DNA of 64,000 bases from Escherichia phage vB-Eco-KMB26, in sequence record OR539218.1. One strand, written 5' to 3'. The notes under the pieces were generated by a model. That model searched no databases. It was not told the origin of the DNA and worked only from the letters and a program-made list of their open reading frames with translations. Below are positions 15,874 to 17,513 of this stretch, one piece after another. Position numbers and translations under genes: made by a program. Numbering within the stretch: position 1 is the first letter of the stretch; each line of letters opens with the position of its first letter.

Positions 15874-16653
15874 TTAATTAAAAATATATACTTCATCAGT
15901 TCCATTCTTTTCTTTGGAATGATATATGTTAAAGACGTATTTTTTATTAAGATGCTTAACATTATATTTTTTAGACCATTCTTTAAGAAGAGTGTTTTCC
16001 TTTCCGTGATGCTCTAAAACATTCGACAGTCCAAATTTTATTCCTCTGTCATTTAAAGAATCTAAAAGATTTAAAAGGTCTTTTTCTTCTTCTTCTGACC
16101 AAAATTTATTATAATCAGCAACTGTTATAAGATATGGAGGGTCCACATATACAAAATCGCCGTCTAGAATTTTGACATCTTTAAAATGCAATGAACTAAA
16201 GATTATTTTATCACAATTTTGTTTAAAGTGATTAAAGCGTTTTTCACTATTTTTGTTTATAGTTCTTTTTCCAAACGGAGTAGTAAAATTTCCTTTATCG
16301 TTTATACGAATCATATTACTAAACCCGTGAAAATGAAGAACATAAAGTAAAAGAGGATCTCTAGTTTTATTATAATCTTCACGTAATTTCAAAAACTCTT
16401 CTTTTGATGTTTTTGATAGTTTATATTGCTTTATTACTTTTAATACGTCATCCCATGATACATTAATAAGACGCTTATACATTTCAATAATTGGTTCTTG
16501 AATATCATTGGCCAATACAGGACCATTGACGTTCAAAGACACTGATAAACCTCCACAAAATAAATCCACGAATCTGTCATATTTTGGAAAATGAGGCTTA
16601 AGTTCAGGTAATAATGACTGTTTATTACCTGTATACGCGATAGCTCCTAGCAT
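15874..16653 (-). CDS. dam: DNA adenine methyltransferase Dam (N6-A, GATC-type)
   Basis: 259 aa with DPPY catalytic motif and N-terminal FxGG SAM-binding motif (FCGG); size matches T4 Dam. Confidence 0.85.
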
Positions 16654-17213
16654 TATATTCTCTCATTTATTGCAGCAAAAAACGAATTATATAATTCTTC
16701 ATCATATGTATTTGATAGTAATACTAACACGTTTTGTGATTTAGCATATTCATTAAACCTTGCTTGGATGGTTGGATTATCAGTAAATGATTCTCTTTTT
16801 GTCCATTTATTACGTGGATAATATCCGCATGGCAAAAAATCTAATATCATCAATGACACAGGGTTTTCAGTTTTTGTGTATTCTTTTAATTTCTCTTTAT
16901 CTTCTAAATATATTCCAACCGAATCAATAGCTGTACCTCCACCAACTTGGTGTTTAATTTCAATTATATGCTTTTTACCGTTGCGAGAAATAACAATATC
17001 AAATCTTCTAGTACGCTTCTTAGTTATAAAATTAGAACAAAACAAATTATTTGATTTTTCAGTATCATCGGTTAAAACCATTTTTTCTTGATAACTAACT
17101 GAACAATCAGTGAAATATTCTTTTACTTTATTAAGTATGAAATTTTCAACTACGGCAGATATTTTATATGAATCTCCGTTTAAAGCCATTTCATGCACAA
17201 TTTTATTAATCAT
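16653..17213 (-). CDS. PD-(D/E)xK-type nuclease-like protein, translationally coupled upstream of dam
   Basis: 186 aa with [20 protein letters not shown] (D-x14-E-x-K on predicted adjacent strands); its stop overlaps the dam ATG by 1 nt. Confidence 0.55.
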
Positions 17214-17237
17214 TATATCATCCTCAGCAATTTATTT

Positions 17238-17267
17238 TATAATACCATAACAAGCTGAGAAAGTAAA
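17238..17267 (-). promoter_or_regulatory. T4-type early promoter
   Basis: Minus strand GTTTAC, 17 bp, TATTAT, upstream of the nuclease-like ORF and dam. Confidence 0.55.
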
Positions 17268-17312
17268 CAAATTTATGAAATTTGTGATAAATATTAATTT
17301 AAAGGAGGACAT

Positions 17313-17513
17313 ATGGCACAAAAATTAATGGCACTTGTTAATGCCATAAAAGGTAATAAAAAACGTATAGCTTTTACTATTTCTGCTATGGTAGGAATTT
17401 TACTCTGGAACTTTATTTTATCACCAATTGCAATTGCGCATGGTGTTAATATTCCAGTAGTTACTCTTGATACATTCGTAGATCTAGCATTTGCTTTAGT
17501 TGGGTTAATTTAA
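17313..17513 (+). CDS. small two-helix membrane protein (only convincing plus-strand gene)
   Basis: 66 aa, two hydrophobic segments, canonical AAAGGAGGA Shine-Dalgarno 4 nt before the ATG; convergent with gene 61. Confidence 0.5.
   Translation: MAQKLMALVNAIKGNKKRIAFTISAMVGILLWNFILSPIAIAHGVNIPVVTLDTFVDLAFALVGLI

Follow-up and report, generated by a model that had tools for sequence, protein, structure and literature searches.

Orphan DNA methyltransferases are commonly thought to derive from restriction-modification systems. Among the best-studied of all DNA methyltransferases are the Dam proteins of phages T4 and T2, which are usually cited as 'orphan', T4 Dam being treated as a solitary methylase with a biological role that is called unknown (PMC4471564). 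In the lytic chlorovirus PBCV-1, an early-expressed GATC adenine methylase is part of a viral restriction-modification system, CviAI, with R.CviAI/M.CviAI encoded as A579L/A581R (PMC7248222). Here we analyse the dam locus of Escherichia phage vB-Eco-KMB26 (sequence record OR539218.1) in a stretch of 64,000 nucleotides, hereafter the window, where dam directly follows an open reading frame (ORF) for a 186-residue protein resembling PD-(D/E)xK nucleases. Based on the predicted structure and conservation of this protein, and on the distribution and decay of the gene pair across T4-like phages, we propose, with moderate confidence, that the 186-residue ORF and dam constitute a type II restriction-modification cassette carried by the phage, with a nuclease of a new family.

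Both genes are on the minus strand, the nuclease ORF at 16653..17213 and dam at 15874..16653, as placed in the initial annotation of this DNA, and the 1-nt overlap of stop and start codons described there is found at the junction ATA TAATG, base 16653 being at once the last A of TAA and the A of the dam ATG. The dam product is a Dam-family N6-adenine (GATC) DNA methyltransferase according to profile searches (PF02086, E 6.5e-51; TIGR00571, E 1.4e-69), is labelled 'orphan methyltransferase' by PADLOC and is 100% identical to T2 Dam. With a promoter-like site upstream, the two ORFs make up a minus-strand cassette of 1,427 bp (15875..17301), as delimited by comparison to phage RB3. The window is a segment of a Tequatrovirus (T4/T2-like) genome, and the 2-kb region around the cassette is 100% identical to that of phages including vB_EcoM-fFiEco06 and ACG-C40, which, like HP3, are carriers of an intact nuclease allele. 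In minus-strand order, the region consists of the gene 61 primase (17510..18538), a 296-bp spacer, the nuclease ORF, dam and the gene 56 dCTPase (15295..15813).

The 186-residue protein is restriction-enzyme-like in its predicted fold, from which we infer nuclease activity of the type IIP kind. A D-x14-E-x-K core had been assigned to it; such a motif is indeed present, with a shorter spacing, D72-x12-E85-x-K87, and with the glutamate and lysine each one position before the E86 and K88 originally given. The catalytic hairpin is encoded at 16953..17000 on the minus strand (D72, 17000..16998; E85, 16961..16959; K87, 16955..16953), and an upstream acidic residue, E23, at 17147..17145 on the same strand. 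E23, D72, E85 and K87 are invariant in a family alignment of eight sequences reaching down to 32% identity, and so are H88-Q89 and G93-T-A-I-D-S98 within the stretch H-Q-x3-G-T-A-I-D-S. An AlphaFold2 model computed from seven family sequences (predicted local distance difference test, pLDDT, 79; predicted template-modelling score, pTM, 0.79) shows the canonical alpha-beta-beta-beta-alpha-beta order of the PD-(D/E)xK superfamily core, and places the residues characteristic of the superfamily accordingly: an acid, E23, in the first helix (residues 15-33), an acid, D72, in beta2 (strand 67-77), and the (D/E)-x-K pair, E85 and K87, in beta3 (strand 80-88). A Foldseek search agrees with a PD-(D/E)xK nuclease fold, and an independent BFVD model of the homologue from Dhakavirus MX01 superposes at a template-modelling (TM) score of 0.93. 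Where present, the gene is under purifying selection, the ratio of non-synonymous to synonymous substitution rates (dN/dS) being ~0.19 relative to MX01 and ~0.20 relative to T2; amino-acid identity to the MX01 protein is 64%, a divergence equal to that of the essential primase.

The protein matches PHROG 8706, a function-unassigned family, over its full length, and among profile libraries it is hit weakly by the PADLOC 'REase_II' profile (E 9.1e-5) and by a BanI-type restriction enzyme. Members of the family are very few and come from T4-like phages only: an exhaustive HMMER search of 1.84 billion representative proteins returned 11 matches, all of them phage-type relatives or fragments and none a bridge to a characterised family, IMG/VR contributed a single locus from a near-identical phage, and neither the single protein nor a profile gave a sequence match in the PDB at E values up to 10. 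Public records name the protein 'hypothetical', except for one GenBank record that reads 'putative DpnII restriction endonuclease', and the literature searched held nothing on the 186-residue ORF, on 'dam.1' or on DpnII with Tequatrovirus. Taken with the model, these searches point to a previously uncharacterised restriction-endonuclease-like family that is new by sequence. The same data bear on the idea that the protein is no DNA-cleaving restriction enzyme at all, being instead a decayed or repurposed PD-(D/E)xK protein (a DNA-binding dam regulator, or a factor in repair or recombination), or a GATC nickase of the MutH type working with Dam in strand discrimination. The fold is multifunctional, with Can2, McrC, Bax1 and R2 retrotransposon domains also among the matches, and several phage lineages tolerate loss of the gene; for the MutH/Sau3AI-like GATC nickases named for comparison in the initial annotation, neither sequence nor fold gives any signal, and neither protein is among the fold matches. 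Overall, we consider such a non-restriction role very unlikely.

The association of the nuclease with a methylase is the second line of evidence for a restriction-modification cassette. In six of six independent contexts, a D12/Dam-family methylase directly follows the nuclease, and the two-gene block is intact at no fewer than three genome positions, which is strong evidence of functional linkage. Tequatroviruses, Dhakavirus MX01 and a 55%-identical metagenomic phage share the order 61 - small ORF - nuclease - dam - 56, Klebsiella phage SmallBear has rIIA - rIIB - denB - nuclease - methyltransferase - ... - ndd, a metagenomic T4-like contig has nuclease - methyltransferase - rIIA - rIIB, and two short contigs contain the nuclease - methyltransferase pair. 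The spacing of the two genes ranges from a 35-nt overlap to a 0-nt gap, and a true gap, of 13 nt, is seen only for a frameshifted allele in T2.

The distribution of the pair was assessed in ~500 Tequatrovirus records matching the region. Some 146 records (~29%) contain nuclease and dam, as follows from coverage of 80% or more of a 2-kb query, which cannot be reached unless both genes are present; ~35 contain dam alone, given a total of 181 records in which Dam is at least 90% identical; and ~320 contain neither gene. Of 60 records sampled at even spacing, 38 matched nothing but the small ORF and the gene 61 end. Not one of the ~500 records has the nuclease alone. Adjacent and co-inherited endonuclease and methylase genes, as expected of a type II system, are thus the rule, with ~146 of ~146 nuclease carriers having both. 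The restriction-modification operon considered in the initial annotation is supported by these data, since the two genes stay together at no fewer than three positions and the nuclease is never seen without the methylase, which itself often occurs alone.

Comparison to phages lacking both genes defines the element further. RB3, T6-type phages and RB69 lack both dam and the nuclease and have the order 61 - small ORF - 56. The homology of RB3 to the window breaks off at 17302 and is regained in the final bases of the dam stop codon, and the cassette therefore spans from just past the Shine-Dalgarno sequence of the small ORF to the dam stop codon. Among Tequatroviruses, this 1,427-bp cassette is present or absent as a unit. 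No convincing microhomology is found at its boundaries, unlike the clear 8-bp repeat at the deletion in T4 described below. A GATC at window position 15781, in the 5' end of gene 56 and ~50 bp beyond the right-hand cassette boundary, is kept in RB3 (position 2807 in L016), T2 and T4. It would be the cut site nearest to the empty locus if the nuclease cuts unmethylated GATC, though its position may be due to chance.

This presence/absence polymorphism and the conserved GATC so near the boundary are the only signs of a homing-type selfish element, in which the nuclease would mainly serve to cut cassette-less T-even genomes near the empty site in mixed infections, recombinational repair would copy the cassette in, as for the Seg/Mob endonucleases of T4, and Dam would shield the carrier. 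Such a scenario overlaps with restriction-modification rather than excluding it. However, the known free-standing homing endonucleases of T4 are GIY-YIG or HNH enzymes without an accompanying methylase, a GATC at such a distance could arise by chance in roughly 1 in 10-20 cases (a post hoc estimate), and a cassette found in a minority of records (~29%), and in decay in several lineages, is unlike an active invader. We therefore regard a homing-type element as unlikely.

The fate of the nuclease gene in T4 and T2 forms the third line of evidence. That T4 has no such genes between dam and gene 61, as the initial annotation had it, is correct inasmuch as the nuclease is lost, yet its last 28 codons remain, and the 66-residue ORF is present in T4, where it is unannotated. 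The 8-bp direct repeat ATCACAAA occurs twice on the minus strand of the window, at 17281..17288 upstream of the promoter-like site and at 16733..16740 inside the nuclease ORF. In T4 and ECML-123-2, position 17281 is joined to 16740 with one copy of ATCACAAA left, and 548 bp are lost. The resulting 309-bp gap between gene 61 and dam of T4 consists of the small ORF, followed by TTATCGCAAA and the last 88 nt of the nuclease ORF (16653..16740) up to TAATG. Since T4 thereby retains the conserved 3' end of the gene, encoding the conserved C-terminal helix of the family, the event was a deletion in the T4 lineage and not an insertion in T2. The difference between the two phages had reportedly been noted by Miner and Hattman in 1988 as a 536-bp 'insertion' of no known homology, located 5' of dam in T2 as compared to T4. 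Hence, the solitary state of T4 Dam is secondary, a result of the 548-bp deletion, which suggests that T4 Dam is the surviving half of a restriction-modification pair.

T2 itself carries a damaged allele. A run of six T's (window 16680..16690) is shortened there by 1 nt, which leaves a protein of 181 residues with the last seven altered, and the stop codon is now 13 nt from the dam ATG, uncoupling the ORF from dam. Mutants of T2 dam are reported to be viable, which an inactive T2 nuclease would reconcile with our proposal. The remnant in T4 and a 61-residue remnant with an internal deletion in phage KarlGJung share this frameshift, and both deletions therefore probably arose on an already damaged allele, suggesting stepwise decay. 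Alleles of 142 and 183 residues exist as well, amounting to at least four independent nuclease-inactivating events (T2, T4, KarlGJung and the 142/183-residue alleles) in which dam is intact, and the reverse was never seen. Such an asymmetry is the pattern that a toxin-antidote, i.e. restriction-modification, pair would produce. In the 3' end of the nuclease gene, at 16690..16720 on the minus strand, T2 and T4 read TTGTATAAT, with an extended -10-like TGnTATAAT, where the window reads TTATATAAT. Judging from these letters, the nuclease remnant may persist in T4 as a carrier of a promoter and ribosome-binding site belonging to dam itself.

Combining these observations, we propose the following mode of action. 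Nuclease and Dam would be produced from an early transcript, with tightly coupled translation. The nuclease would be a compact endonuclease of the EcoRI/MunI structural class, probably a homodimer, with an active site formed by E23, D72, E85 and K87. Dam would methylate GATC on the DNA of the phage itself and thereby serve as the antidote, the nuclease cutting only DNA without the Dam mark, i.e. being blocked by N6-methyladenine at its site. The likely targets would be DNA molecules that are under-methylated at the site, above all those of co-infecting phages, including the dam-less T-even majority; under-methylated foreign DNA is the likelier target because the DNA of the enterobacterial host is already Dam-methylated. 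The cassette would then act as an inter-phage weapon, as a selfish toxin-antidote module or as both, with the nuclease half being repeatedly lost while dam persists, the dam of T4 representing such an orphan.

The cassette could alternatively be directed against the host. For the same reason, namely the Dam methylation of enterobacterial DNA, degradation of host DNA by a Dam-protected nuclease is unlikely if the site is plain GATC, as envisaged in one version of this idea. In another, the nuclease degrades host or cytosine-containing DNA, its site being methylated by phage Dam and not by host Dam, or being blocked by hydroxymethylcytosine (hmC), similar to the chlorovirus enzymes. According to Schlagman and Hattman, T2 and T4 Dam are said to modify some non-GATC GAY sites. 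The window Dam is identical to that of T2, the more active of the two enzymes. Judging from the promoter-like site, expression appears to be early, and the pair in the Klebsiella phage is located between denB (endonuclease IV) and ndd, both of which are host-DNA shut-off genes; PBCV-1 provides a precedent for virus-encoded restriction-modification (PMC7248222). On the other hand, T-even phages already have EndoII and EndoIV for host DNA, most relatives live without the nuclease gene, and a strict dependence on Dam, as opposed to hmC alone, would require the assumption of a broader methylase specificity. Degradation of host or cytosine-containing DNA consequently strikes us as improbable, on a par with a non-restriction role of the protein.

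Site depletion does not help in choosing a recognition sequence. Among the 4-bp palindromes of the window, GATC is by far the most strongly depleted (64 observed vs 205 expected, ratio 0.31), with GATA, GATT and GATG not depleted, and this matches the counter-selection of GATC in enterobacteriophages attributed to Deschavanne and Radman 1991, as that work is cited in PMC4471564. Relatives with or without the cassette are depleted as strongly or more so, however, with a ratio of 0.10 in RB69 and 0 sites vs 12 expected in MX01. Depletion was hence rejected as a clue to specificity, because it is a general T-even feature that says nothing on what the nuclease recognises.

Several points weigh against a restriction-modification cassette. 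The only pointer to GATC as the recognition site is the neighbouring methylase. With plain GATC as the site, the chromosome of the host is protected, and phage DNA containing glucosyl-hmC may resist cleavage, making a selective benefit hard to see; moreover, T4 DNA with glucosyl-hmC is reported to be incompletely GATC-methylated (PMC4471564), which would put the phage at risk were modified DNA open to cleavage by the nuclease. Operon structure and the sampling of close relatives could account for part of the lack of nuclease-only genomes, and a nuclease-before-methylase order with translational coupling is not the commonest restriction-modification arrangement. No relative is found in 185,579 bacterial and archaeal species genomes, and the nuclease family therefore offers no characterised restriction-modification member for comparison. 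As to DpnII, the Pfam family (PF04556) gives weak yet consistent matches to five of seven members of the phage family with a best E of 8.3e-5, but the window protein scores 16.8 bits, below the gathering score of 23, and the alignment spans only profile positions 152-235 of 278. An hhalign comparison of the phage family to a DpnII-family alignment of 14 verified sequences covers 34 columns around RFDxVI...IE at a probability of 36%; the DpnII reference sequence was verified by 335.7 bits to PF04556 and by 99-100% identity to database DpnII proteins. Membership in the DpnII/MboI family was rejected, given the sub-threshold Pfam score, the alignment of only the catalytic hairpin and the missing N-terminal half.

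The proposed early expression is based on a sigma-70-like site, TTTACT-17-TATTAT with TG before the -10, which the scan finds at 17267..17239 on the minus strand, where the initial annotation had assigned an early promoter. On its own the site is weak, since such sites are no commoner in this AT-rich DNA than in shuffled sequence (9 found vs 12.4 expected). Its predicted role is strengthened by diverged phage MX01, which has a GTTTAC -35 and a TG-extended -10 at the equivalent relative position, and the nuclease ORF has a Shine-Dalgarno sequence, GAGGA, at 17225..17221, 8 nt ahead of its ATG. A terminator-like hairpin, ATGGCATTAACAAGTGCCAT with a T-rich tail after it, is located on the minus strand at 17328..17347, ~160 nt past gene 61 and antisense to the small ORF at its 5' end, where it could end gene 61 transcripts ahead of the cassette promoter.

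Between dam and gene 56, the sequence TTGCTTACATACTCAAATGATATAAT (15846..15872, minus strand) has a MotA-box-like TTGCTTA followed by TATAAT and resembles a middle promoter of T4 that would serve gene 56. In RB3, which is without the cassette, TTGCTTACATACTCAAATGATATAAT is retained in diverged form. Further downstream, between gene 56 and soc (15227..15294), there is no segF homing-endonuclease gene in the window; T4 has one (L001 1107..1781). Relative to fFiEco06 the window is a mosaic, identical around dam and not identical beyond ~22 kb.

Next to the cassette and outside it, the 66-residue ORF at 17313..17513 on the plus strand, called a membrane ORF in the initial annotation, is a conserved, real gene for a small membrane protein. 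It is named 'dam.1' in RB3 and RB69ORF029w in RB69, and matches phrog_2024 (PHROG 2024) over its full length (E 1.6e-31). The ORF converges on gene 61, overlapping the stop of the latter by 4 nt. Ahead of it are a late-promoter-like GATAAATA at 17286..17293 (TATAAATA in MX01) and, at 17302..17309, the very strong Shine-Dalgarno sequence AAGGAGGA. Its product has a basic N-terminus followed by one hydrophobic segment (residues 19-43). An open frame of 63-66 residues is kept in T4, RB3, RB69, MX01 and a metagenomic relative, with ~20% identity between the extremes, W32, N33, P38, G44, P48 and V50 being invariant, and close relatives differ by 8 synonymous vs 3 non-synonymous changes. The T4 copy, at 17738..17938 (plus strand) of NC_000866.4, is intact and unannotated in the RefSeq record. 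Since the ORF is present where the pair is absent (T4 without the nuclease, RB3 and RB69), and is absent beside the pair in the Klebsiella phage, it is unrelated to the pair. That it is the only credible plus-strand gene in the window is not contradicted by our data, in that every plus-strand ORF of 100 residues or more overlaps a minus-strand gene, smaller ORFs not having been checked exhaustively. A plus-strand homing endonuclease near gene 46 of fFiEco06 (L018 31870..32586) was discarded as a counterexample, the gene being absent from the window.

The implications extend to the T-even phages at large. T2 and ~29% of the Tequatroviruses sequenced have dam as the second member of a conserved nuclease-methylase pair, and the derivation of an orphan methylase becomes visible at nucleotide resolution for the textbook case of T4 Dam. 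A bolder proposal is that T-even Dam exists as the antidote of a phage GATC-directed restriction enzyme of a hitherto unrecognised family, used between T-even phages, which cuts Dam-less co-infecting relatives, spreads by repair-mediated copying and is hidden in T4 by the 548-bp nuclease deletion; we put this forward as a speculation of low probability. The purpose of T-even Dam in any case becomes directly testable by simple experiments. Should the 186-residue protein be active, it would represent a new restriction-enzyme family and, with Dam, a rare restriction-modification system in a strictly virulent bacteriophage with hypermodified DNA.

The cassette can be compared to several described systems. 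MunI and EcoRI (PDB 1D02 and 1ERI) are the structural class to which the predicted fold is assigned, but sequence identity is 12% with no sequence-level PDB match, the partner here is of Dam type (GATC) and not an AATT methylase, and the spacing from ExK to the G-x-A-I motif is much shorter. DpnII/MboI is the sole named family with sequence similarity (RRFDIVI...IIEIK..GGG here, KRFDFVI...LIEVN..SGSG in DpnII), and a Dam-family GATC enzyme is the partner methylase in both; however, DpnII has ~288 residues compared to 186, i.e. ~100 more, and E-V-N in place of E-I-K. The optional nuclease genes of T4, Seg/Mob, with SegF beside gene 56, likewise stand between conserved early genes, in the same neighbourhood, and vary in presence among close relatives, yet they are free-standing GIY-YIG or HNH homing endonucleases, a class to which an always methylase-linked PD-(D/E)xK protein does not belong. 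In contrast to orphan phage methyltransferases such as T4 Dam, Dam is not solitary in the window and in ~29% of Tequatrovirus records. A likeness is also seen to CviAI of PBCV-1, again a lytic virus with a GATC methylase in a viral restriction-modification system (PMC7248222), with the difference that PBCV-1 infects a eukaryotic alga whose unmethylated DNA is hence a target, whereas the host here is already Dam-methylated.

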